Shown here piece after piece: positions 4,727 to 58,444 of a stretch of DNA of 64,000 nt (position 1 is the first letter of the stretch; each line of letters starts with the position of its first letter). A model generated the notes under the pieces. It had not been told where the DNA came from. It made no database searches and saw only the letters and a list, made by a program, of their open reading frames with translations. Where the stretch lies: NCBI GenBank assembly GCA_013329055.1, contig DUKY01000015.1, forward strand, positions 2,339 through 66,338. Reading direction: 5' to 3'. This DNA comes from Nanobdellota archaeon (GTDB lineage Archaea; Nanobdellota; Nanobdellia; Pacearchaeales; GW2011-AR1). The translations under genes and the position numbers were made by a program.

Positions 4727-4852
4727 ATTTATTTTGAAATCTTTCCTTAAAAATAACTTATCTCTAAATGTTGCACTTTACTAGTGATTTAAGATATTAT
4801 AATAACACTTCAGAGATTATATACTTATCATCTTATTTTATTTTCTATAAAC

Positions 4853-4922
4853 TATAAATGTGTAAAATTATAAATGTGTAAAATTATAAATGTGTAAAAT
4901 TATAAATGTGTAAAATTATAAT
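4853..4922. repeat. 16-bp tandem repeat (tataaatgtgtaaaat), 4 full copies plus a partial copy
   Basis: Exact copies at 4853, 4869, 4885 and 4901, with a partial copy from 4917. Lies about 35 nt upstream of the ATG at 4956. Each unit carries a TATA-like ttataaat. Confidence 0.95.
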
Positions 4923-4955: not shown

Positions 4956-6125
4956 ATGAGTAAAAAAAATGTTGATATTGTTTATGCTGTTGCATCTAAA
5001 CTAGGAAGTATTGGGATTGGAACAATTGCATATCATGCTATCAAAAAAGTTAATGATTCTCCGAATCTTTCTTATAATATTTTTTGTAGAGGTTATGATA
5101 ATAAATTAGATTTAAAATCAAAAAGCATTAAATCTTATGGATATTTAGAAACAATTTCATTGCCACTTAGATTTTTAGAAAAAAGTTTAGGATTAACATT
5201 AAATCCATTTAAATATATAAATTATTTTTTTGGTAAACTAATTAATAAAAATCTTCCTAATTGTAAGATTTATCATACCTGGGTTGGATTTGCTCCTGAA
5301 GCAATAATGAATGCTAAAAAAAATGGTGCTACATTAATCTTAGAAGGGGCCAATAGTCATCCCTTAAATTATTCAAAAATTTTAAATAAAGAATATAATA
5401 AATTAGGATTAAAAGAATTTTTAATAGATCCGAATTCATGGGAAAAACAATCTGAAATACTAAAAGAATTTGATTACGTGACCTGCACTTCTGATTTTGT
5501 TTATAATTCTTTTTTAGAAAGAGGTTTTAGTAAAAAACAATTAATCAAAATGCCTTATGGTGTTGAATTAAAAAATTTTAAAGTTAAGAATCATGTTAAC
5601 AAAAAATTAAAGTTTGTTTTTATTGGAAGTATACAAGTTAGAAAAGGGATTTACTACTTATTAAAAGCATGGGATGAGTTAAAATTGAAAGATGCTGAGT
5701 TAATTATTGTTGGAAGAGTTTGGGCTGATGCAAAAAAAATAGTTGATAAATATAAAGATAATAATACGATTAAATTTGTTGGCTTTGAGTCAAATCCTCA
5801 AAAATATTTAGAGAGTTCTGATGTTTTTGTTTTTCCTACTCTTGAAGAGGGGTCTGCCCTTGTCACATATGAGGCTATGGCCTCAGGTTTGCCATTAATA
5901 ACAACATTTAATTCTGGTACTATTGCAAGAGATAAAAAAGAAGCATTAATTGTTCCCGCAGGAAATGTTGAAGCGTTAAAAGAAAAAATAAAGTATCTTT
6001 ATGATAATCCCAAAATTATTTCTAAAATGGGAAAAGATGCAAGAAAAAGGGTTGAACAGTTTTCTTGGAAAGATTATGGGGAAAGAATTGCTAAATTTTA
6101 TGAAGAAATTTTAAATAAAAAATGA
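4956..6125 (+). CDS. Glycosyltransferase family 4 (GT-B)
   Basis: VFVFPTLEEGSALVTYEAMASGLPLITT... is the EX7E-type GT4 signature. Confidence 0.8.
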   Translation: MSKKNVDIVYAVASKLGSIGIGTIAYHAIKKVNDSPNLSYNIFCRGYDNKLDLKSKSIKSYGYLETISLPLRFLEKSLGLTLNPFKYINYFFGKLINKNLPNCKIYHTWVGFAPEAIMNAKKNGATLILEGANSHPLNYSKILNKEYNKLGLKEFLIDPNSWEKQSEILKEFDYVTCTSDFVYNSFLERGFSKKQLIKMPYGVELKNFKVKNHVNKKLKFVFIGSIQVRKGIYYLLKAWDELKLKDAELIIVGRVWADAKKIVDKYKDNNTIKFVGFESNPQKYLESSDVFVFPTLEEGSALVTYEAMASGLPLITTFNSGTIARDKKEALIVPAGNVEALKEKIKYLYDNPKIISKMGKDARKRVEQFSWKDYGERIAKFYEEILNKK

Positions 6126-7102
6126 TTAATGGCAAAATTTTAATTACAGGGGGGGCAGGATATATTGGTTCACACGTTGTTAGGCATTTAATAAATGAGG
6201 GGATAAGCCCAAGTGACATTGTTATTTTTGATAATTTAGAAAGAGGAAATATTGAAATGATTCCAAAAGAAGTAATATTTGAAAAAGGAGATTTGCAAAA
6301 TAAAGATGATATTAAAAAAATATTTTTGTTGAACAAAATTTCTTACGTAATTCATTTTGCAGCATATGCTTATGTGGGGGAAAGTATGGTTTTTCCGGAA
6401 AAATATTTTGAAAATAATGTTTGTGGGGGATTGAACTTATTGAATGCTATGATTGAAAATAATGTAAAAAAGATAGTTTTTTCTTCTAGTTGTGCAATTT
6501 ATGGGAATCCTAAGGTTCTTCCGATAATGGAAAACAATGATAAAATTCCTATTAACCCTTATGGTCTATCAAAATTAATGTTCGAAGAAATTTTGAAATG
6601 GTATGATAAAATTCATGGTATGAAAAGTATTTGTTTAAGATATTTTAATGTTGCTGGTGCGGGAGATGGGATTGGTGAGAAACATGAACCTGAAACTCAT
6701 GTAATCCCTCTTCTTATTCAAGCATCAATTTCAGAAAATGAATTTAAAATTTTTGGTGATGATTATAAAACTCCTGATGGGAGTTGCATTAGGGATTATG
6801 TGCATGTTTCAGATTTAGCTGATGCTCATTATAAAGCATTGAATTATTTAATCTCTAAAAATGAATCTAATCAATTTAACATTGGTAATGGTAATGGAGT
6901 AAGTATATTTACTCTTATCAAAAAAGTTGAAGAAATTACTAGGAAAAAAGTAAAATTTGTTCTTCAACAAAGAAGAGAAGGAGATCCCCCTATCTTAACC
7001 TCCAATTCAACAAAAGCAAATGAAATTTTAAACTGGAAAGCAACAAAAGATATTAATGACATTATTAAAGATGCTTATCTTTGGGAATCAAAAAAAATTT
7101 AA
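6122..7102 (+). CDS. galE: UDP-glucose 4-epimerase
   Basis: ILITGGAGYIGSHVV, SSSCAIYG, YGLSKLMFE (YxxxK), DGSCIRDYVHVSDLA. Length 326 aa. Overlaps the upstream GT by 4 nt. Confidence 0.8.
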   Translation: MINGKILITGGAGYIGSHVVRHLINEGISPSDIVIFDNLERGNIEMIPKEVIFEKGDLQNKDDIKKIFLLNKISYVIHFAAYAYVGESMVFPEKYFENNVCGGLNLLNAMIENNVKKIVFSSSCAIYGNPKVLPIMENNDKIPINPYGLSKLMFEEILKWYDKIHGMKSICLRYFNVAGAGDGIGEKHEPETHVIPLLIQASISENEFKIFGDDYKTPDGSCIRDYVHVSDLADAHYKALNYLISKNESNQFNIGNGNGVSIFTLIKKVEEITRKKVKFVLQQRREGDPPILTSNSTKANEILNWKATKDINDIIKDAYLWESKKI

Positions 7103-7162
7103 CCTTGAATCTTTTCTTTAAAGGACACATAAAATTTAAAAGTTGTTTTATTCTAAAATAAT

Positions 7163-47303: not shown

Positions 47304-49715
47304 ATGATTCAACTCACTCCTGGAATGCAACAATATATGAAAATTAAAAATGCAAATCCGGATTGCATAATTCTTTTTAGAATGGGCGATTTTTATGAAA
47401 CTTTCTTTGAAGATGCAAAAACTGTTGCCAGAGAATTAGAAATCACACTAACTTCAAGAGGAAAAGGTGAATTTAAAGCCCCTTTAGCAGGTCTTCCGTA
47501 TCATGCACTTGACCCTTATTTAGCAAAATTAGTGAAAAAAGGGTACAAGGTAGGAATAGTTGAACAAATCGAAGACCCAAAAAAAGCAAAAGGGTTAGTA
47601 AAAAGAGATTTAGTAAGAATCATCACCCCCGGAACAGTCGTCGAATCTTTAATCCTTGAACAAGGGTCAAATAATTATATTTTAAGTTTTGTAAAAGACA
47701 ACGATGAATTTAGCATAAGTTTTTGTGACCTCTCTACCGGAGAATTTTTAACAACAAGACTAAACTTGGACCAATTTTTAAATGAGTTAAAAAGAATCAA
47801 CCCCGCAGAAATTATTTTTCCAATGTCTTTAGAAGAATCAGAATTTATTTTAAATTTAAAAAAAGATCATTTAATTAATTCTTACGATGATAGATTTTTT
47901 TATCATGAAAAAGCAATGGAAGTTTTAAATAATCATTTTAAAACATTAAATTTAGATGGTTTTGGAATACAAGATAAATTAATGCAAAGTTCTTCAGGAG
48001 CATTATTATCCTATTTAAAAAATACACAGCAAAATGCTCTAACTCATATAAATAAAATTCAAAAATACGAATTAAATAATTACATGTATTTAGATAATGC
48101 AACCATTAGAAATTTAGAATTATTAAATAACATAATCTTGCAAAGTGAAAATTCTACATTGTTAGGAGTGCTTGATAAAACAAAAACTCCGATGGGAAAA
48201 CGTTTAATTAAAAGATGGATTATTTCGCCTTTAATAGACAAAGATGCAATTCAAAATCGTTTAGATTCTGTTGAAGAATTAAAAGAAAATATTTTTTTGC
48301 GTTCTGATTTAAATAATTCTTTGCAAAATGTTTACGACATTGAAAGATTAATTGCAAGAGTAGCATATGGTAACGCAAATCCTAAAGATTTGGTTGCATT
48401 AAAACAATCATTAACATTCTTGCCTAAAATTAAAGAACTTTTAGAAAAAACTAAAAGTTTTGAATTGCAAAAAATTTCTAAAATTCCTGACTTGGAAATG
48501 GCAAGAAAAAAAATTCAGGATGCAATAAAAGATGAGCCAAATACAATTATCCGTGAAGGAAATATTATTCGTAATGGCTATAACTCTGAATTAGATGAAT
48601 TGCGGGAATTAACCCATAACACAAAAAAATATTTAACAGAATTAGAAGAAAGAGAAAGACAACGTTCAGGAATAAAATCCTTAAAAATTAATTATAATCG
48701 TGTTTTTGGATATTACATTGAAATTACAAAATCAAATCTTCACTTAGTCCCAGAGGATTATATCCGTAAGCAAACTCAGGTTAATTCAGAACGTTTTATC
48801 ACCGAAGAATTAAAAGAAAAAGAATCTAAAATATTGGGTGCAGAAGAAAGAATCTTTGAACTTGAACAGGAATTATTCTTTAAATTATTAGAAGATTTAA
48901 AACAATATGTCCCTCAAATTCAATTAGCTTCAAAAATAATTGCAAAACTTGATTGTTTTATTTCTTTTGCAATTGTCTCAGAAGTCAATAATTATTGTAA
49001 ACCCTCTTTTAATTCATACGGAATTTTAGAAATAAATTCTTCAAGGCATCCTGTAATAGAAGCATTTTCAAATATTGATTTTATAACAAACTCTTGCAAT
49101 CTTAATAATGACAAAAGGACAATGATTATTACCGGACCAAATTTAGCAGGAAAATCTACATATCTAAGGCAAATAGCATTAATTTGTTTAATGGCACAAA
49201 TAGGTTGTTTTGTCCCTGCAAAAAGTGTAAATCTTCCAACCATTGATAGAATTTTTAGTAGGATCGGAGCATACGATGATCTTGTTCACGGGCAATCAAC
49301 TTTTATGGTAGAGATGAGCGAAACAGCAAATATTTTAAATAATGCCACAAAAAATTCTTTAGTAATTTTAGATGAAATTGGGCGTGGAACTTCAACTTAT
49401 GACGGTGTATCGCTGGCATGGGCAATTGCCGAATATTTGAATAACAAAATACAGGCAAAAACTTTGTTTGCAACACATTATCATCACTTAAATAAAATGG
49501 AACAAATGTTTAAAGGAATAAAAAATTATAACATTGCAATAGAAGAAACAAATGACAGGATAATCTTTTTAAGAAAAATTATCGAAGGCGGAACAGACAA
49601 AAGTTATGGAATTCAGGTTGCAAAACTTGCAGGAGTGCCGGAAGCTGTTGTAAATTCTGCAAAAAGAATTATGAACTTAATTGAAGAAGGAAAGTGGGAT
49701 AAATTTGAGAATTAA
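47304..49715 (+). CDS. mutS: DNA mismatch repair protein MutS (bacterial MutS1 type)
   Basis: TPGMQQYMKIK...FRMGDFYETFFEDA (mismatch-binding FxE), Walker A GPNLAGKST, STFMVEM, DEIGRGTSTYDG. Confidence 0.9.
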   Translation: MIQLTPGMQQYMKIKNANPDCIILFRMGDFYETFFEDAKTVARELEITLTSRGKGEFKAPLAGLPYHALDPYLAKLVKKGYKVGIVEQIEDPKKAKGLVKRDLVRIITPGTVVESLILEQGSNNYILSFVKDNDEFSISFCDLSTGEFLTTRLNLDQFLNELKRINPAEIIFPMSLEESEFILNLKKDHLINSYDDRFFYHEKAMEVLNNHFKTLNLDGFGIQDKLMQSSSGALLSYLKNTQQNALTHINKIQKYELNNYMYLDNATIRNLELLNNIILQSENSTLLGVLDKTKTPMGKRLIKRWIISPLIDKDAIQNRLDSVEELKENIFLRSDLNNSLQNVYDIERLIARVAYGNANPKDLVALKQSLTFLPKIKELLEKTKSFELQKISKIPDLEMARKKIQDAIKDEPNTIIREGNIIRNGYNSELDELRELTHNTKKYLTELEERERQRSGIKSLKINYNRVFGYYIEITKSNLHLVPEDYIRKQTQVNSERFITEELKEKESKILGAEERIFELEQELFFKLLEDLKQYVPQIQLASKIIAKLDCFISFAIVSEVNNYCKPSFNSYGILEINSSRHPVIEAFSNIDFITNSCNLNNDKRTMIITGPNLAGKSTYLRQIALICLMAQIGCFVPAKSVNLPTIDRIFSRIGAYDDLVHGQSTFMVEMSETANILNNATKNSLVILDEIGRGTSTYDGVSLAWAIAEYLNNKIQAKTLFATHYHHLNKMEQMFKGIKNYNIAIEETNDRIIFLRKIIEGGTDKSYGIQVAKLAGVPEAVVNSAKRIMNLIEEGKWDKFEN

Positions 49716-50152
49716 GAAATCCTTATATTCTCTTCTTTAATTGTATTTAAAATTAAACTTGTCTCAGTTTTTTTAATAAAATCATATTCCTGAATTTTTT
49801 TCAAAAAAGTATTTAATGATTTTCTGTTTTTGAATTTTGCAATCATCATTGCATCAAAATCTCCGGTTATATCATAAATCGCAAAAACATTTGGTTCTTT
49901 ACTTAATTTTTTTTCAGCTTCTTTGAACATTCCGTGTGTTATTCGCATGTTTATTATTGCACTAACATCATAGCCTAACTTTTCATAATCTAAATTGATT
50001 GTATGATTCTTAATCACTTTTTCTTTTTCCAGCTCCTTCATCCTCTTTAGCACAGTAACGCCTGACACACCGACAAAACTTGCAATTTTTCTATATGAAC
50101 GATTAGAGTTTTCCAGTAAAACATTTAATATCTTTGTGTCAATTTGGTCCAT
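49712..50152 (-). CDS. Lrp/AsnC-family transcriptional regulator
   Basis: DQIDTKILNVLLENSNRSYRKIASFVGVSGVTVLKRMKELE HTH plus a C-terminal RAM/AsnC_trans_reg domain. Confidence 0.85.
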   Translation of the reverse strand: MDQIDTKILNVLLENSNRSYRKIASFVGVSGVTVLKRMKELEKEKVIKNHTINLDYEKLGYDVSAIINMRITHGMFKEAEKKLSKEPNVFAIYDITGDFDAMMIAKFKNRKSLNTFLKKIQEYDFIKKTETSLILNTIKEENIRIS

Positions 50153-50289
50153 TTTTACTTAGCAAATGATTAATTTATTTGTCAATATTTTTAATACACT
50201 TAACAAATATATAAACTTTTTCAATAAAATTAACAAATGTTAATTAATTTTGCCAAACTGTTAATAAACATTTAATTCTTAACTTAAAA

Positions 50290-50472
50290 ATGGAATATAA
50301 AATAAAATCAGCAAAAGAACAAAGAACCTGCAAATATCAAGGAAGTTGTAAAGTTGGTGAGTGCAATGGAAGAAGCCAGCAAAGTGGTGTTTATCATAAT
50401 TGTTACCAGCCACTTCCGAAAATTATTCGTGGAGACTTATTCTTGAAAAAAGGTCTATTAAAAAAACTGTAA
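50290..50472 (+). CDS. Small Cys-rich hypothetical protein (weak call)
   Basis: 60-aa ORF upstream of mutL with 5 Cys (CKYQGSCKVGECNG...NCYQ). No recognised motif. Confidence 0.25.
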   Translation: MEYKIKSAKEQRTCKYQGSCKVGECNGRSQQSGVYHNCYQPLPKIIRGDLFLKKGLLKKL

Positions 50473-50518
50473 TTTTTTAAACATAAATTAATAAAAATAG
50501 TTTGTTTTTATTTCTTTA

Positions 50519-52249
50519 ATGGTAATTAAACTTCTTGATAATTCGATAATAAACAAAATCGCCGCAGGAGAAGTCATTGAAAGGCCTGCTTCAGTCGTTA
50601 AAGAATTATTAGAAAATTCTTTTGATTCAGGAGCAGACGAAATAAAAATAGAAATCTATGACGCAGGAATAAAAAAAATTAAAATTTCAGATAATGGTTC
50701 AGGGATGACTAAAGAAGATGCCTTGATTTCATATAAGCGTCATACAACTTCAAAAATAGCTAATGAAGAAGATTTATTTTCAATTAATTCTTTAGGTTTT
50801 CGTGGTGAAGCTTTAGCCTCAATTGCCGAAATTTCAAATTTAAAAATAATCACCAAAACTTTTGATTCTTCTTTAGGAACATTTATTGAAGTTGAAGGAG
50901 GTAAATTAATAAAAGAAGAACAGATTGGATGTTCAAACGGAACAATAATCGAAGTAAATGATTTATTTTTTAACGTTCCCGCAAGAAAAAATTTTCTTAA
51001 AAGTAATGAAATTGAACTTTCAAAAATAATTAATATCATTACAAAATATGCTTTAATAAAAAATGATGTTTCAATTAAATTAATTCATAATAATAAAGAA
51101 ATTTTAAACTCCCATAAAACTAATTTCTTAATTAATAATATTATCTTTGTTTATGGTCCTGAAATTGCAAAAGATTTAATCAATGTAAATTATGAAGAAA
51201 ATGGAGTTATCGTTAAAGGTTATATCTCAAAACCTGTATTAACACGGGCAGATAAATCTGACCAGTCTTTATATGTAAATAAAAGATATGTAAAAAATAA
51301 TATTATTTCGCAAGCAATTTATGAAGCGTATAAAACTTTACTTTTTATAAATCGTCATCCTGTTTTTATCTTGGAAATATTAATCGATCCAAAAGAAATT
51401 GATGTAAATGTTCATCCCGCAAAAACTGAAATTCGTATTAAAAAAGAAGAATTAATTTCAGGAATTATTTTTAATTCAATAAAAAATGCTTTTCAAAATA
51501 GCAATTTAATTGTTTCTGCTTCGCTGGAAAATGAAACAAATCATAAATCGATAAAAAAATATGAATTTGCAAAAGATAAGCAATCTGTCTTAATGGTTAA
51601 AGATGATTCAAATTATCTTTCAACAAATCTTTATTCGGAAAAATCCAATTTTACTAAGAAAAAAAATATTTTTGAAAATTTTTATCTGCTTGGGCAAATT
51701 AATAAGACTTATATTATTGGAGAAAATCCTGAAGGATTAATTGTTCTTGATCAGCATGCTGCAGAAGAAAGAGTTAATTATGAAAAATTTATGAATGAAA
51801 AAAAATCCGGAGCGATCAAAAAACAAAATCTATTAACCCCAAGAATAATCGAATTAACACCTGTTCAATATCGTGCGGCATTAAATAATAAAACTTTCTT
51901 TGAATCTTTAGGTTTTAATTTTGATGATTTTGGAAATAATTCAATAAAATTAACAACTATCCCAGAAATTTTTGGAAGGTTAAAATCAACTTTATTATTA
52001 GATGTTATTAATGAGCTTGTAAATTTAAAAGGAAAAATTGTCGACAAAGAAATTGAAGAAAGAATAATTCGTTTTGCATGCCGTGCATCAGTAAAAGCAG
52101 GAGAAGAATTAACAAGTGTAGAAATGCGACAGTTAATAGAAAATTTAGGAAAAACTGATAATCCTTATTCATGTCCACACGGAAGACCAACTTTGATAAG
52201 TTTCAGTATTGCAGATTTAGAAAAAAAATTTAAGAGGACTGGTTGGTAA
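50519..52249 (+). CDS. mutL: DNA mismatch repair protein MutL (endonuclease-type)
   Basis: GHKL ATPase motifs (AAGEVIERPASVVKELLENSFDSGA, DNGSGM, GFRGEAL). C-terminal DQHAAEERVNYE and CPHGRPT endonuclease motifs. Confidence 0.9.
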   Translation: MVIKLLDNSIINKIAAGEVIERPASVVKELLENSFDSGADEIKIEIYDAGIKKIKISDNGSGMTKEDALISYKRHTTSKIANEEDLFSINSLGFRGEALASIAEISNLKIITKTFDSSLGTFIEVEGGKLIKEEQIGCSNGTIIEVNDLFFNVPARKNFLKSNEIELSKIINIITKYALIKNDVSIKLIHNNKEILNSHKTNFLINNIIFVYGPEIAKDLINVNYEENGVIVKGYISKPVLTRADKSDQSLYVNKRYVKNNIISQAIYEAYKTLLFINRHPVFILEILIDPKEIDVNVHPAKTEIRIKKEELISGIIFNSIKNAFQNSNLIVSASLENETNHKSIKKYEFAKDKQSVLMVKDDSNYLSTNLYSEKSNFTKKKNIFENFYLLGQINKTYIIGENPEGLIVLDQHAAEERVNYEKFMNEKKSGAIKKQNLLTPRIIELTPVQYRAALNNKTFFESLGFNFDDFGNNSIKLTTIPEIFGRLKSTLLLDVINELVNLKGKIVDKEIEERIIRFACRASVKAGEELTSVEMRQLIENLGKTDNPYSCPHGRPTLISFSIADLEKKFKRTGW

Positions 52250-53203
52250 TTATCCCAAACTCAAAATTAATTTAGCAATTATCTCTTCATTATGTCGAAC
52301 TAATGAAGTTTCTGAAATTAAATTCTCTCCAATAAATTTCGCCTTAAATTTTTTAAAATTTTCAGAATCAATTTTTACCGTCTGAGATTCTTCGCCCTTA
52401 TATTTATCCAATCTTTCTTGCGAAGGCATTTTTGAGTTATAAATTACATAATCAAGACAATCTTTTCCTAAGTACTTAATTAATTCATTCAAATGTTGAG
52501 TAATAGTAAAATTATTTGTTTCACCCTTTTTTGTCATAAGATTGCAAACGTAAACTTTTTTTGCTTTTGATTCATTTATTGCATTTGAAATATTTTCAAC
52601 AACCAAATTCGCAATTGTACTTGTATAAAGATCCCCCGGACCCAAAACAATTATATCTGCTTCTTTAATTGCTTTAATTGCCTTTTCATGTGCAAAAGCA
52701 TATGGCTCTAAAAATAATCTTTTAATTTTTAAATTTGAATTATGTTTGGGTATATCAATATTGGTTTCCCCCTTAACAATTTCACCGTTTTCTAACTCTG
52801 CACAAAGATTGCTTTTCTCAAGTGTTACAGGTAAAACATTTCCTTTAACATTTAGAATTTTGCATGCCGAATTAATCCCTTCTTCTTCTGTTCCTGTTAT
52901 TTTTGTTAAAGCAGTTAAAATTAAATTACCCATTGAATGATTCTTTAAACCTGCTCCTTCTTTAAATCTATATTCAAAAAGTGTTCTCATAATCTCTCGA
53001 TTTTCTGAAAGAGCAATAATGCTTCTTCTTATATCCCCTACAGGAAGAGTTCCAAATTCATCAATAAGCCGACCAGTTGAACCCCCTGAATCCATCATGG
53101 AAACAATTGAAGTTAAAATACAGTCATGTTTTTTCAATCCACTAAGAAGCGTATAAATTCCTGTTCCTCCGCCAATTAAAACTATTCTTTTCGGGTTTTT
53201 CAT
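52250..53203 (-). CDS. YvcK / CofD-like (UPF0052, gluconeogenesis-factor family) protein
   Basis: IVLIGGGTGIYTLLSGLK...SMMDSGGSTGRL...GDIRR. Confidence 0.75.
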   Translation of the reverse strand: MKNPKRIVLIGGGTGIYTLLSGLKKHDCILTSIVSMMDSGGSTGRLIDEFGTLPVGDIRRSIIALSENREIMRTLFEYRFKEGAGLKNHSMGNLILTALTKITGTEEEGINSACKILNVKGNVLPVTLEKSNLCAELENGEIVKGETNIDIPKHNSNLKIKRLFLEPYAFAHEKAIKAIKEADIIVLGPGDLYTSTIANLVVENISNAINESKAKKVYVCNLMTKKGETNNFTITQHLNELIKYLGKDCLDYVIYNSKMPSQERLDKYKGEESQTVKIDSENFKKFKAKFIGENLISETSLVRHNEEIIAKLILSLG

Positions 53204-53223: not shown

Positions 53224-53763
53224 TTATTTATAATTTATGAATTTATCACGAATTAATCCATTTTCTTCGCAATATTTCCAAAAATCATCTGAAGTATCAA
53301 AATTGGGGCAAACGGTTATAATCTCTTTTCTTTTTTGATGAAGTTTTGCTTCACGACCTAATTTTGAAAGGTAAGTTCCAACAAGATAATCTTCTGGTGT
53401 AAGTATTTTATTCAATTCTTGATATAGCCCTGTAGCGATTTTTTGTTTCTGTTTATCTTCCCTGACCTCAATAAAATTTATTGCCCAATAATTTGGAAGT
53501 TCACCCAAGTCATTATAGACTCCTGTTTTTAAAACACCAACAATTGATCTTGGATCTTCTTTTATTTCTTTAGCCAAAATAAATCTTGTAATATCCGGAG
53601 AAATCATTTTTGCCGGAGAAAAAAAATTAAATCCTTTAAAAACTTCTTGGCCTTCCTGATTTATTCTTAATGGGATTTTCCAATTTGTTCCTTCCAGTAG
53701 TTCTTCTTTCAATTTTTCTTTGCTCTTGCATTCAAAATATAAATTTTTCATAAAATTATCCAA
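53224..53763 (-). CDS. Hypothetical protein (possible acetyltransferase-like fold; weak)
   Basis: 179-aa ORF. KQKQKIATGLYQELNK faintly resembles GNAT motif A. Confidence 0.45.
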   Translation of the reverse strand: MDNFMKNLYFECKSKEKLKEELLEGTNWKIPLRINQEGQEVFKGFNFFSPAKMISPDITRFILAKEIKEDPRSIVGVLKTGVYNDLGELPNYWAINFIEVREDKQKQKIATGLYQELNKILTPEDYLVGTYLSKLGREAKLHQKRKEIITVCPNFDTSDDFWKYCEENGLIRDKFINYK

Positions 53764-53793
53764 CTTATATGGTTTATAAATTTTTTTAAAATA

Positions 53794-53988
53794 TGCCCGG
53801 ACCTGTTCTCCTGCCTTCGCACGAAACTTTATGGATTATTATTTCTACCACGAAGTTACTCGTCGAACCCTTGGGTTCTTCATCCCAGAAATGCGCGGAC
53901 CTGTTCTCCTAACTTCGCTCGAAATCATTTGGATTATTATTTCTACCACGAAGTTACTCGTCGAACCCTCGGGTTCTTCATCCCGAAA
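53794..53988 (-). repeat. Two tandem units of about 97 bp directly 3' of tRNA-Gly, each a T-arm/acceptor copy split by an insert
   Basis: Units at 53794-53891 and 53892-53988. On the minus strand each reads ..CCGAGGGTTCGA-[about 66 nt]-GGTCCG(C/G)GCA, versus tRNA CCGGGTTCGAATCCCGGTCCGCGCA. Confidence 0.9.
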
Positions 53989-54060
53989 TGCGCGGACCGG
54001 GATTCGAACCCGGATATTCTGCTTGGAGGGCAGAAAGTCTAGCCATTGACCTATCCACGC
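53989..54060 (-). tRNA. tRNA-Gly (anticodon UCC by manual fold)
   Basis: GCGTGGA-TA-GGTC-AATGGCTA-GACT-T-TCTGC-CCTCCAA-GCAGA-ATAT-CCGGG-TTCGAAT-CCCGG-TCCGCGC-A. G1:C72, C2:G71, G3:C70 and A73 fit archaeal Gly. Loop position 33 reads C. Confidence 0.8.
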
Positions 54061-54143
54061 ATAATATTATTTATTAAACTTTTAGTTTTAAATTTTATTG
54101 TTTTTTATAATTGGTTTTTTAATTAATTTAAAACCTAAAAAAA

Positions 54144-54269
54144 CGCCCGAGACAGGATTTTGCTTTCAATCACTCTCTAAATTTTTGGATTATTTTTCTC
54201 GTGTAATTGTTCGACCTGCGATTTCAAACTTATTTGAATTTAAGCAGGATTCAAATCCTTTTTAAAAAC
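54144..54269 (-). repeat. Partial copy of the tRNA-Arg 3' portion with a T-loop insertion
   Basis: Minus strand: ATCGCAGGTCGAA-[about 52 nt]-AAATCCTGTCTCGGGCG, versus tRNA GTCGCAGGTTCAAATCCTGTCTCGGGCG. A 17-nt exact copy of the tRNA 3' end lies at 54144-54160. Confidence 0.85.
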
Positions 54270-54344
54270 CGCCCGAGACAGGATTTGAACCTGCGACCTA
54301 AGCATTAGGAGTGCTTCGCTCTATCCAGGCTGAGCTACTCGAGC
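54270..54344 (-). tRNA. tRNA-Arg (anticodon CCU)
   Basis: GCTCGAG-TA-GCTC-AGCCTGGATA-GAGC-G-AAGCA-CTCCTAA-TGCTT-AGGTC-GCAGG-TTCAAAT-CCTGT-CTCGGGC-G. A clean 75-nt cloverleaf. Confidence 0.9.
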
Positions 54345-54351
54345 AAATGGA

Positions 54352-54632
54352 TTTGGAAGAAAACTCAGAAAATTGAAAAAATTCTCTGGGACTTCAACAG
54401 ACAGTGCAGTTGAAGTGATTCGAACTCTTCCCATTCGAATCTTAATGCGGAAGAAAACTCAGAGAATTCTTTTCATTCTCTGGGACTTCAACAGACAGTG
54501 CAGTTGAAGTGATTCGAACTCTTCCCATTCGAATCTTTATGTGGAAGAAAACTCAAAGAATTTTTTCAATTCTTTGGGACTTCAACAGACAGTACAGTTG
54601 AAGTGATTCGAACTCTTCCTATTCAATCTTTA
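54352..54632 (-). repeat. Three tandem units of about 93-94 bp directly 3' of tRNA-Leu (acceptor/T-arm minihelix-like copies with a two-hairpin insert)
   Basis: Units at 54352-54445, 54446-54539 and 54540-54632. Each reads (minus strand) ..TGGGAAG-AG-TTCGAATC-[insert]-TTTCTTCC(A/G/A)(C/C/A)A. Confidence 0.9.
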
Positions 54633-54716
54633 TGTGGAAGAAAGGATTCGAACCCTCGCAGGCACTAAGCCACTGGAGCCTTAATCCAGCCCGTTTGACC
54701 GCTCCGGCACTTCCAC
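54633..54716 (-). tRNA. tRNA-Leu (class II, long variable arm; the anticodon loop UUAAGGC gives a formal anticodon of AAG)
   Basis: GTGGAAG-TG-CCGG-AGCGGTCAA-ACGG-G-CTGGA-TTAAGGC-TCCAG-TGGCTTAGTGCCTGC-GAGGG-TTCGAAT-CCTTT-CTTCCAC-A. 84 nt. Confidence 0.8.
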
Positions 54717-54750
54717 ATATAGTTTTTTAGAAGATTTAGTTTTTAATAAT

Positions 54751-55078
54751 TGTGGAGCGGGAAAACGTTTGACCCGAGCGATTTCATATGCTCTAAATCT
54801 GTTTACGTAACTTACGCATATGGGATTGCGAGTTGAGCAATTACGATTGCAATAAATTCTGAAAAGTAAATTTGAAAAATCGCAAGCGTGGTTGTGAGTA
54901 ACGTAGGCACTTCCACATTTTTGAGGAGTGGGAAAACTCGTTTGACCCGAACGATTTCATAAGCAATAAATTGCTTGCGTATCTTTAACGCGAGTGAGAT
55001 CGTGAGTTGAAAGTTTTTGTCCAACTTCCGATAACCCCTGATTTTGGACAAGGGCTTGAGTTTCTCCGGCACTTCCGC
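54751..55078 (-). ncRNA. Two head-to-tail tRNA-Leu 5'-fragment units (acceptor 5' strand plus D-arm split by structured inserts of 105-135 nt). Function unknown.
   Basis: U2 (55078->54919): GCGGAAGTGCCGGAG-[insert]-CGGGTCAAACGAGTTTTCCCACTCCTCA. U3 (54916->54751): GTGGAAGTGCC-[insert]-GGGTCAAACGTTTTCCCGCTCCACA. Neither has an anticodon arm or a T-arm. Confidence 0.6.
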
Positions 55079-55112
55079 ATTATTCTATTTAAAGCAATAA
55101 AAGAAATCTTTT
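55079..55112 (-). promoter_or_regulatory. Putative archaeal promoter of unit U2 (copy 1 of a duplicated 34-nt segment)
   Basis: Minus strand AAAAGATTTCTTTTATTGCTTTAAATAGAATAAT abuts GCGGAAG. About 30 of 34 nt match 55264-55297. AT-rich TATA-like elements are present. Confidence 0.5.
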
Positions 55113-55137
55113 AATCCTTTTGGATTTGAATTTTATT

Positions 55138-55263
55138 TTCGAACCCTCGCAGGCACTAAGCCACTGGAGCATTAATCCAGCCTAGTTTGATCCGAAGGTT
55201 TTCGCGAACTTTCCCAATTGCCCTTGATGTGAGCAAGGTTGTGAGTAGCGTAAGCACTTCCGC
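55138..55263 (-). pseudogene. tRNA-Leu-like gene body, either incomplete or requiring non-standard processing
   Basis: GCGGAAGTGC-[59-nt insert, 55195-55253]-CGGATCAAACTAGG-CTGGA-TTAATGC-TCCAG-...GAGGGTTCGAA, then unrelated sequence. No T-stem 3' strand or acceptor 3' strand follows. 45 nt match tRNA-Leu with 1 mismatch, at anticodon position 36. Confidence 0.6.
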
Positions 55264-55297
55264 ATTATTATGATTAAAGCAATAAAAGAAATCTTTC
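55264..55297 (-). promoter_or_regulatory. Putative promoter of unit U1 (copy 2 of the duplicated 34-nt segment)
   Basis: Minus strand GAAAGATTTCTTTTATTGCTTTAATCATAATAAT abuts GCGGAAG. Confidence 0.5.
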
Positions 55298-58186: not shown

Positions 58187-58271
58187 AAATATCTTAAATA
58201 AACACGCGTTATAAAATTTGTGATTTTTCAAGATAAAAAGCTTTATAAAGTAGGAAAATTAGATAATTTTG

Positions 58272-58384
58272 AAGACGGCCATAATAGGTTGGAAATACCT
58301 GTTCCCATCCCGAACACAGAAGTTAAGCTTCCTATGTTAATGACTGTAGTGCCCGACAAGGTGCAAACTCATTAAGCTGTCTTT
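58272..58384 (+). rRNA. 5S ribosomal RNA (stand-alone)
   Basis: CCCATCCCGAACACAGAAGTTAAGC hallmark. The terminal helix AAGACGGC/GCTGTCTT closes the molecule. Confidence 0.85.
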
Positions 58385-58444
58385 CATTTTCTTTTAAAAT
58401 GCATTTAATGTAAGTTCTGCATCAATAACTTCTCTAGGCATTAT

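Follow-up and report, generated by a model that had tools for sequence, protein, structure and literature searches.

Partial tRNA copies interrupted by conserved hairpin modules in a polymorphic tRNA island of a DPANN archaeon

A tRNA island, in which intact tRNA genes are accompanied by interrupted partial copies of themselves, occupies positions 53794-55297 of the 64-kb stretch of DNA analysed here (the window). ARAGORN and Rfam (50-64 bits) identified exactly three tRNAs in it, all on the minus strand: an intact tRNA-Leu(AAG) at 54632-54717 (Rfam 50.4 bits), an intact tRNA-Arg(CCT) at 54269-54345 (64.4 bits) and an intact tRNA-Gly(TCC/UCC) at 53988-54061 (62.8 bits). No open reading frame (ORF) in 53794-55297 is longer than 86 aa, and the region had thus been described correctly in a first-pass annotation as an ORF-free island with these three tRNAs on the minus strand. 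Partial-copy units lie 3' of each tRNA (three for Leu, one for Arg and two for Gly) and three more lie 5' of tRNA-Leu. Tandem Repeats Finder detected a 98-nt unit repeated 2.1 times at 53793-53998, after tRNA-Gly, and a 94-nt unit repeated 3.1 times at 54354-54643, after tRNA-Leu, both with 91% matches; these results and the location of the pieces by pattern agree with the one to three trailing units per tRNA, and the three ahead of tRNA-Leu, that had been counted initially. Diagnostic patterns of the units were observed 2, 3 and 4 times, compared to 0.09, 0.07 and 0.18 times expected, and are confined to the island within the 64 kb. As the same architecture recurs in independent assemblies (L155, L081, L001 and L200-L209), it is not an assembly artefact.

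The anatomy of the units, all of which are on the minus strand, was established by direct reading of the sequence and by pattern location of the pieces. Units E1 (54540-54631), E2 (54446-54539) and E3 (54352-54445) are arranged in tandem 3' of tRNA-Leu, and each contains a T-loop copy, RAAGAGTTCGAATC, a 53-nt insert (54552-54604 in E1, 54458-54510 in E2 and 54364-54416 in E3) and then TTTTCTTCCNNA. A T-loop-like hairpin (GATTCGAAT...GTTCGAATC) stands ahead of the insert, and the units close with a copy of the T-stem 3' part and acceptor 3' strand that reads TTTTCTTCC followed by ACA, GCA or AAA. The start of tRNA-Arg(CCT) is 6 nt past the last repeated base of E3 (54352). Its single unit, R1 (54144-54268), comprises a hairpin with an inverted T-arm copy, the T-loop copy TCGCAGGT at 54214-54221, a 52-nt insert consisting of a degenerate hairpin (54162-54213), then AAAATCCTGTCTCGGGCG in a copy of tRNA-Arg nt 57-73 (54144-54161), and a run of seven T. 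The units of tRNA-Gly, G1 (53892-53987) and G2 (53794-53891), are made up of GAUGAAGAACCC..GGGUUCGA, a hairpin and a copy of the 3'-terminal 10 nt of tRNA-Gly, such that RAGGGTTCGA is followed by a 59-nt insert and by GGTCCGSGCA; in G2 the end copy is mutated to GGTCCGGGCA. We refer to the insert of the Gly and Arg units as K-type and to that of the Leu units as E-type, both labels being coined here. The first-pass annotation had placed the inserts right after the TTCGA of the T-loop, which does not apply to Arg, where the insert follows T54 of a TTCAAAT loop. As a further small correction to its description, the GGTTCGA of the Gly type belongs to the basal helix of the hairpin element as well.

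On the 5' side of tRNA-Leu, units A, B and C all begin with GYGGAAGTGC and have inserts of 59, 113 and 128 nt, respectively. Unit A (55138-55263) is a 5' partial tRNA-Leu copy, in which the acceptor 5' strand (55254-55263) is followed by an insert of 5E-type in the D-arm (55195-55253) and by a segment (55138-55194) with D-loop, anticodon arm, variable arm and T-stem 5' strand that stops in the T-loop at GTTCGAA. The anticodon loop of unit A, TTAATGC, corresponds to an anticodon AAT, and its insert is homologous to that of unit U1 in L155, a 186-kb contig closely related to the island, and to the tRNA-Ala leader in the rRNA spacer of contig L176. Unit B (54922-55078) consists of tRNA-Leu nt 1-15 (GCGGAAGTGCCGGAG), its insert, a D-loop remnant (TCGGGTCAAAC) and then GAGTTTTCCCACTCCTCA. 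Units of this B-type (GCAGAAGATGCCGGAGAACTCAAGCCC...TTCGGGTCAAACTAGTTTTCCCAC) were also found as U4 in L155 and, in the unrelated contig L114, ahead of tRNA-Leu(TAG), there with the long-range closing helix preserved. In unit C (54751-54916), tRNA-Leu nt 1-11 precede the hairpin-rich insert, TCGGGTCAAACG and TTTTCCCGCTCCACA, and the ends of the unit are able to pair like an acceptor stem (GTGG.../...CCACA vs. GCGG.../...CCGCA in its L155 homologue U3). The three units noted earlier ahead of tRNA-Leu do start with the acceptor 5' strand, but anticodon, variable and T arms are missing from B and C. A promoter-like A/T-rich motif, AAGATTTCTTTTATTGCTTTAA, is located upstream of unit A (55274-55295, minus strand) as an exact 22-nt duplicate of a copy upstream of unit B (55089-55110, minus strand), and the same motif stands ahead of units and tRNA-Leu in L155; it may well serve as a promoter.

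The K-type insert is a conserved hairpin of ~57 nt with a 9-bp and a 5-bp stem. In an alignment of 15 copies, 98.1% of the cells were paired and 6 of the 14 pairs showed compensatory changes; none of 500 shuffles attained the observed score, and slid controls paired at no more than 51%. Two U-G wobbles in the stem are conserved, and since these would be C-A mismatches on the opposite strand, the structure is selected on the tRNA-sense strand. The stem is flanked by G11 A12 on the 5' side and by G62 A63 G64 on the 3' side, which are invariant save for G62 (at least 90% of copies), and the loops are near-invariant. In the Gly-type copies and in those of L114, L184 and L106, a 3-nt bulge and a helix of 3-4 bp (GTTC/GAAC or GAC/GTC) precede this core. 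The window, L001 and L114 show the pattern GTTC-GAC-GA-stem ... stem-N-GA-GAAC. The corresponding canonical stem (C-stem) is GCAC with one mismatch in L184 and GAC/GTC in L106, and no clear C-stem was recognised in L096, L138, L151 or the Arg type. K-type carries the sequence signature of a kink-turn (K-turn), with C-stem, 3-nt bulge, tandem G.A/A.G pairs and non-canonical stem (NC-stem), and is a putative kink-turn on this basis.

No Rfam family matches the K-type or E-type modules, and with the Rfam 15 covariance models only tRNA, 5S and rRNA were matched in the window and ten related loci. When K-type was examined as a C/D box small RNA (sRNA), at most a GAUGA-like word upstream was found, CUGA and guide regions were lacking and the stems were fully paired. 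As an H/ACA RNA it has no pocket, the internal loop measuring 5 x 3 nt (UGGUA/GNG), and ACA ends occur in Leu units only, with 3' ends that are derived from the tRNA. For GAUGAGAACC...GGUUCGAC, C/D box, H/ACA and hammerhead RNAs were considered and dropped by inspection, the only snoRNA match from Rfam being sR45 with E=3. The idea of an rRNA guide was abandoned as well, the complementarity of the L176 unit to its own 16S/23S rRNA being no better than that of shuffled sequence.

Copies of the module were found by a metagenome scan for the hairpin core and then by BLAST and covariance model R1, which gave 28 K-type copies. They are distributed over ~12 unrelated contigs, with two sites per contig in L155 and L182, and the K-type pattern has no copy elsewhere in the 64-kb window. 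In the island the K-type model matches G1 at 53897-53968 (85.0 bits) and G2 at 53799-53870 (71.3 bits). The Arg insert of L155 and L081 (CGTGGTAGAAnnAATAATCCAnAAnGnTTCGTGCG) can plainly be recognised as the element that forms the Gly insert; L081 and L001 are, like L155, related to the island. K-type was also detected 42 nt downstream of tRNA-Leu(TAG) in L114, 45 nt downstream of tRNA-Ile in L151, 51 nt downstream of an intron-containing tRNA in L184 and 66 nt downstream of tRNA-Ala in L176, there in the spacer of an archaeal 16S-23S rRNA operon. Further independent sites are L106 and the tRNA-free intergenic islands of L096/L185/L162, L138/L174 and L182/L186.

At all six tRNA-linked sites the same rule of context applies: K-type is on the tRNA strand, 20-66 nt downstream of the gene, and sits at positions ~54-65 within a copy of the cognate T-arm, after which come the last 9-18 nt of the tRNA. 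The T-loop copies that hold it are TCGCAGGT for Arg, TTCAAATCT for Ile, TTCGATTC for Ala and GGTTCGA for Gly, Leu and the tRNA of L184. With conserved structured inserts at a minimum of six different tRNAs in several archaeal lineages, a recurrent process is indicated rather than random decay, as the first-pass annotation had argued. Among the options it listed, scars or insertions of a T-loop-directed element fit the finding that modules at tRNA genes always lie between ~54 and 65 of the T-arm copy. The junctions of the modules vary in position, 1-5 nt are often lost and the flanking direct repeats measure 9-53 nt; this corresponds neither to a target-site duplication of fixed length nor to the precise crossover of an integrase. 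Examined as possible miniature inverted-repeat transposable elements (MITEs), the modules showed no terminal inverted repeats and no fixed-length target-site duplication. L176 contains another partial copy of tRNA-Ala, which shares the upstream sequence of the first but is hairpin-free, and we read it as an empty paralogous site. The spacer tRNA-Ala(UGC) of that contig (region 1200-1700) has an intron of ~58 nt, its Rfam tRNA match spanning 129 nt, and is flanked by a 5E-type leader upstream and by the K-type unit and the 'empty' partial copy downstream; since modules flank this tRNA within the rRNA operon, they would be transcribed there as part of the pre-rRNA.

The modules are independent, conserved and structured elements. 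E-type is a 53-nt double hairpin in which 4 of 15 pairs covary, and it was also found in the tRNA-free island of L162 and after tRNA-Leu(TAG) in L114, there directly behind the K-type unit. Modules of 30-130 nt are common to the tRNA-free islands and occur there in shuffled order. These islands, of 0.4-0.7 kb (L162 2770-3480; L182 4430-4960 and 6540-7120; L096; L185), contain K-type, E-type and a repeated motif CCATG..ACAGAAGGCTC..CAATGTTTYGRGGAGRTTCAAAA, have inverted GTTTTTAA..AAGATTT words at their borders and are negative with Rfam, which also gave no support for RNase P-like words in the islands of L162 and L182. TnpB or another transposase had been suspected between the two module clusters of L182, but the gene there encodes an MFS transporter, and a 67-nt insertion with a 9-nt target duplication in the same contig was reinterpreted as another K-turn hairpin in tandem, one whose apical part differs. 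In the unit adjoining tRNA-Arg, the loop of E-type hairpin 2 is inverted (TTTTTTCAA vs. TTGAAAAAA; 54364-54416 vs. 54552-54604), as it is in E2' of L155. By its sequence this looks like a hairpin-loop flip; it puts a T-rich run ~25-37 nt upstream of tRNA-Arg.

The number of units is not the same in all assemblies. Three upstream Leu units, three E units, one Arg unit and two Gly units are present in the window, compared to five upstream Leu units (in a different order), two E units, three Arg units and two Gly units in L155. In L081, too, there are at least three Arg units, and L001 has the 57-nt hairpin alone, four times in tandem. Ten assemblies encode an identical flanking protein of 712 aa (P0004), which is 79% identical to that of the window, and in the eight of them with a complete island the number of Arg units is 3 or 2 and that of Gly units 2 or 1, although short-read collapse of tandem repeats could add to such differences in copy number. 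In L209, a truncated contig, the numbers of 5' and E units are different. At the loci of more distant homologues of the flanking gene (44% and 37% identity) no tRNA island was found.

Copies in the arrays also decay. R1 of the window scores 55.8 bits, whereas the Arg-linked copies of L155 and L081, which are intact, reach 82-85 bits; the outer stem of the Gly copies in L155 and L081 is broken by three mismatches, and distal repeats of the tRNA 3' end are mutated (GGTCCGGGCA, GGTTCGGCA and CTTCCAAA). Units next to tRNA-Leu carry either of two states, U2:A71 or C2:G71, and the apparent covariation between upstream and downstream units is accounted for by these acceptor-stem alleles of the tRNA, with no need for pairing between units. 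A 'nested' pairing of Leu units (B with E2 and C with E1, via C2:G71 vs. U2:A71) was rejected accordingly, as it reflects alleles only and the nesting fails in L155. The contigs L001 and L081 end inside arrays. For the 175-aa protein encoded downstream of the island (53224-53763), public calls are 240-272 aa long (P0001 and P0002; L200-L207), an annotation artefact, since the ORF has been extended upstream into the repeats of the Gly units. In practical terms, then, the arrays break assemblies and lead public annotation to extend the neighbouring gene falsely at its N-terminus.

To the reading that we favour we assign a probability of about 0.55: partial tRNA copies would have been generated by recombination centred on the T-loop and colonised by lineage-specific, strand-specific hairpin modules, in arrays that expand and contract while old copies decay. 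Partial copies would initially arise beside an intact gene, the 3' copies extending from the T-stem to the 3' end and the 5' Leu copies, together with a duplicated promoter region, being broken off in the T-loop; that both kinds break there is what suggests recombination centred on the T-loop. Modules, namely K-type for Gly and Arg, E-type for Leu and other hairpin modules in the 5' units, would subsequently be inserted into these copies on the tRNA-sense strand, in or beside the T-loop of 3' copies and the D-loop of 5' copies. The resulting direct repeats could then drive unequal recombination or slippage, by which unit number would change fast. Copies adjacent to the tRNA tend to match its sequence, while distal copies decay. 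The modules would behave like lineage-specific interspersed mosaic hairpin repeats and are possibly mobile genes for L7Ae-binding sRNAs. Several observations weigh against this reading. No orthologous site that is filled in one strain and empty in another was found, terminal inverted repeats are lacking, the flanking direct repeats vary between 9 and 53 nt, no transposase or integrase was seen, and part of the copy-number variation may stem from the assembly collapse mentioned above. Near-invariant loops and a K-turn-like core could equally mean a cellular RNA function, and the presence of B-type 5' units and of both 3' module types at tRNA-Leu in two lineages (window and L114) implies that they are perhaps kept by selection.

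Such a function is the core of the main rival explanation, in which the modules are functional sRNAs released by RNase Z from tRNA precursors, acting as L7Ae-type ribonucleoproteins or as processing, terminator or insulator elements, with the tRNA-derived flanks supplying processing sites or target pairing. It would account for the location of units 20-66 nt downstream of at least six tRNAs and on their strand, for the invariance of the K-turn-like nucleotides, the high conservation of the loops and the strand-specific structure, and for the linkage of B-type and E-type units to tRNA-Leu in two lineages. No strong terminator separates Leu, E1-E3 and Arg, a run of seven T follows R1, and hairpin 2 of E-type is followed by TTTT and is terminator-like; dicistrons of tRNA and sRNA as well as 'mobile' K-turn sRNAs in Nanoarchaeum equitans provide a precedent (PMC3491384). 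However, C/D boxes, an H/ACA pocket and any Rfam match are missing, and the rRNA complementarity of the L176 unit does not exceed that of shuffles. The only Arg-linked copy of the window is degenerate, stems of Gly copies in L155 and L081 are broken, copy number ranges from 1 to 5 between near-identical strains, and modules also occur in tRNA-free mosaics in shuffled order. We therefore regard this explanation as somewhat unlikely; it does not exclude the favoured reading, since the modules could be mobile sRNA genes. A bolder and decidedly tentative version holds that K-type, and perhaps E-type and the 5' modules, may be a hitherto unrecognised class of mobile L7Ae-type K-turn RNA elements of Nanoarchaeia that home into tRNA T-loops in a strand-specific manner and thereby fragment archaeal tRNA genes. 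The 3' GAAC of the element would pair with GTTC of the T-loop and so complete the K-turn, and the gene would break at the T-loop and at the D-loop. If this were true, the elements would be the long-sought agent of tRNA fragmentation, seeding non-canonical introns and split tRNAs, and would have been caught at the population level. Quite improbable, in our judgement, is the view that the units are pure att-site scars, left by repeated integration of T-loop-targeting viruses or plasmids and subsequent decay, with the hairpins as remnants of the elements. The 3' copies do span the region from the variable-loop/T-stem border to the 3' end, and the block from T-stem to 3' end is typically common to attP and attB of T-loop-targeting integrases; in Caldiarchaeum, a recombinase-bearing element is documented to have left tRNA fragments behind (PMC3293823). 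But no integrase Pfam domain and no transposase domain occurs within ~10 kb of the island, no contig in IMG/VR carries the tRNA 3' ends or the hairpin, and no real match to the hairpin, to the B-unit motif or to any of the three tRNA 3' ends emerged from scans of viral sequences. An element with an integrase and with these sequences as its att sites, which the first-pass annotation had considered as a source of inert scars, was thus found neither in the ~10-kb neighbourhood nor in IMG/VR. The hairpin, moreover, is inside a partial copy and not between attL and attR, it recurs with covariation at six different tRNAs and at tRNA-free sites, and the units are short (94-129 nt). Recombination centred on the T-loop may still explain the origin of the first partial copies.

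The 5' units (A, U1, U2 and U5) and the 3' units might finally be separately transcribed halves of split or multi-intron tRNAs that are joined by splicing endonuclease and ligase to give extra isoacceptors such as Leu(CAA). The host belongs to the Nanoarchaeia, where split tRNAs exist, and after in-silico removal of inserts and joining, ARAGORN accepted U5 plus E of L155 as Leu(CAA) and U1 plus E as Leu(AAG), its accepted joins including U5, U1 or U2 with an E-unit tail, as well as Leu and Arg 5' parts joined to distal 3' copies. Compared with the tRNA, E units have a single compensatory change that leaves their T-stem able to pair (AAGAG with C...TTTT), and it is at positions 34 and 36 of the anticodon that the anticodon loops differ. 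Mismatches are present, however, in the anticodon stems of U1, U2 and U5, also in the joins that ARAGORN accepted, and ARAGORN rejected the Gly join and unit A of the window, the latter even with the insert removed and a 3' end added. No bulge-helix-bulge (BHB) motif was found at any insert junction: a scan of the island gave 116 hits vs. ~64 in shuffles, BHB-like hits being explained by AT-richness and repeats, and one AT-rich candidate at an insert boundary conflicts with hairpin 2, the other hits being off the boundaries. The base of K-type, a 4-bp helix and a 3-nt bulge, resembles half a BHB, and the predicted splice product has no T-stem. All inserts are in truncated copies and never in a full-length gene. 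Their removal restores a T-arm in the Leu E units only; Arg is left with a non-canonical T-loop of 6 nt, and Gly and Ala units are unable to re-form the T-stem. There are no complementary leaders or trailers, the palindromic TTCGAA alone being able to pair (7 bp). Arg and Gly have no 5' partner units, unit numbers are polymorphic, and closely related strains do not have the same anticodons in their 5' copies (AAT in the window vs. AAG, AAA and CAA in L155). Split or alternative tRNA halves and spliced T-loop introns, both put forward in the first-pass annotation, are not supported, given the lack of a BHB, of complementary leaders and of conserved anticodons. This explanation is highly improbable; in the favoured reading, the partial copies do not serve as split-tRNA halves, and the intact tRNAs are the sole functional tRNA products of the island.

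Among known systems, that of N. equitans offers dicistronic tRNA-sRNA precursors and 'mobile' K-turn sRNAs (Randau 2012, PMC3491384), and its sRNA genes at the borders of split genes are suspected of driving gene fragmentation (PMC3491384). It shares with the island a host from the Nanoarchaeota/Nanobdellota and small RNAs of K-turn type directly downstream of tRNA genes. In contrast to its canonical C/D box or H/ACA guides, K-type has no C/D boxes, guide regions or pseudouridylation pocket and is embedded in a partial tRNA copy and tandemly amplified. In Caldiarchaeum subterraneum, tRNA fragments and intron gain are attributed to the integration of a mobile element (Sugahara 2012, PMC3293823), and for Thermoproteales a transposition of tRNA introns has been described (Fujishima 2010, cited in PMC4390854). 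Population heterogeneity, stray fragments next to an intact gene and related short inserts at several tRNAs are features that the island has in common with these cases. They involve a recombinase-bearing element of 1.8 kb or true BHB introns within full-length genes, whereas the island has neither recombinase nor BHB and its inserts are in truncated copies, arranged as tandem arrays. Like split tRNAs (N. equitans, Caldivirga) and permuted tRNAs, the island has separate 5' and 3' pieces, some with a promoter-like motif upstream, in a DPANN host; unlike them, it lacks leader/trailer helices and BHB, its pieces vary between strains and an intact copy of every tRNA is present. Bacterial repetitive extragenic palindromes and interspersed mosaic elements (REP/BIME) and MITEs are likewise short, ORF-free hairpin modules with compensatory changes, which form intergenic clusters of variable mosaic order and number. 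The modules described here differ from them in their archaeal host, in having no terminal inverted repeats or fixed target duplications and in their strong tie to copies of the tRNA T-loop and their K-turn-like core, and no RAYT or other transposase was identified. None of the closest systems compared has tandem arrays of partial tRNAs that are each interrupted in the T-loop by one conserved hairpin of neither C/D nor BHB type.

How interrupted and split archaeal tRNA genes originate is an open question, on which the locus bears, and split tRNAs were discovered in the same host group. The island and its relatives present fresh, polymorphic 5' and 3' tRNA fragments that break at the T-loop or D-loop and are associated with an uncatalogued structured element. 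The locus looks like tRNA-gene fragmentation in progress and not like working split tRNAs. If the modules are mobile, they would provide a concrete, testable candidate mechanism for tRNA fragmentation; if they are functional K-turn RNAs, they would constitute a new archaeal RNA family.

The host was assigned to the DPANN archaea from three lines of evidence. The ribosomal proteins L3 (315 aa), L4, L2 and S19 (135 aa) of the window have archaeal sizes, a CofD-like gene 0.6 kb from the island is 99% identical to a gene in a metagenome-assembled genome (MAG) labelled Candidatus Nanoarchaeia (L001), and the contig L176, with a related element, bears archaeal 16S and 23S rRNA. A bacterial host from the candidate phyla radiation (CPR), prompted by MutS/MutL and CofD, was ruled out by the ribosomal protein sizes and the labels of the related MAG, and the bacterial-looking MutS/MutL and SecD genes leave the archaeal assignment unchanged. 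The bacterial-type MutS, MutL and CofD/YvcK-like genes are located at 47304-52249 and 52250-53203 of the window. Outside the species, the nearest relatives of CofD are in MAGs of Woesearchaeota and CPR (Patescibacteria), with 50-56% identity; these split affinities suggest gene exchange between two groups of small-celled organisms, or else mislabelled MAGs.

The anticodon AAG of tRNA-Leu, with A34, is kept in the related lineage (L155, gene at 7067-7152). A34 is unusual in tRNA-Leu of an archaeon, where G34 is expected. The acceptor stem has U2:A71 in the window vs. C2:G71 in L155, a compensatory change, and because the gene is conserved in the relative with this change, it looks functional. 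A34 may imply an A34-to-inosine activity or a reading of CUU only. No 16S or 23S rRNA gene is present in the window, which has a lone 5S rRNA gene at 58271-58385 on the plus strand, 3 kb from the tRNA island and between a hypothetical gene and small ORFs, and the same solitary arrangement of 5S exists in L155. At 4849-4921 of the window, an intergenic tandem repeat with a unit of 16 nt (AAATTATAAATGTGTA), repeated 4.6 times with 98% matches, lies upstream of an ORF at 4956.

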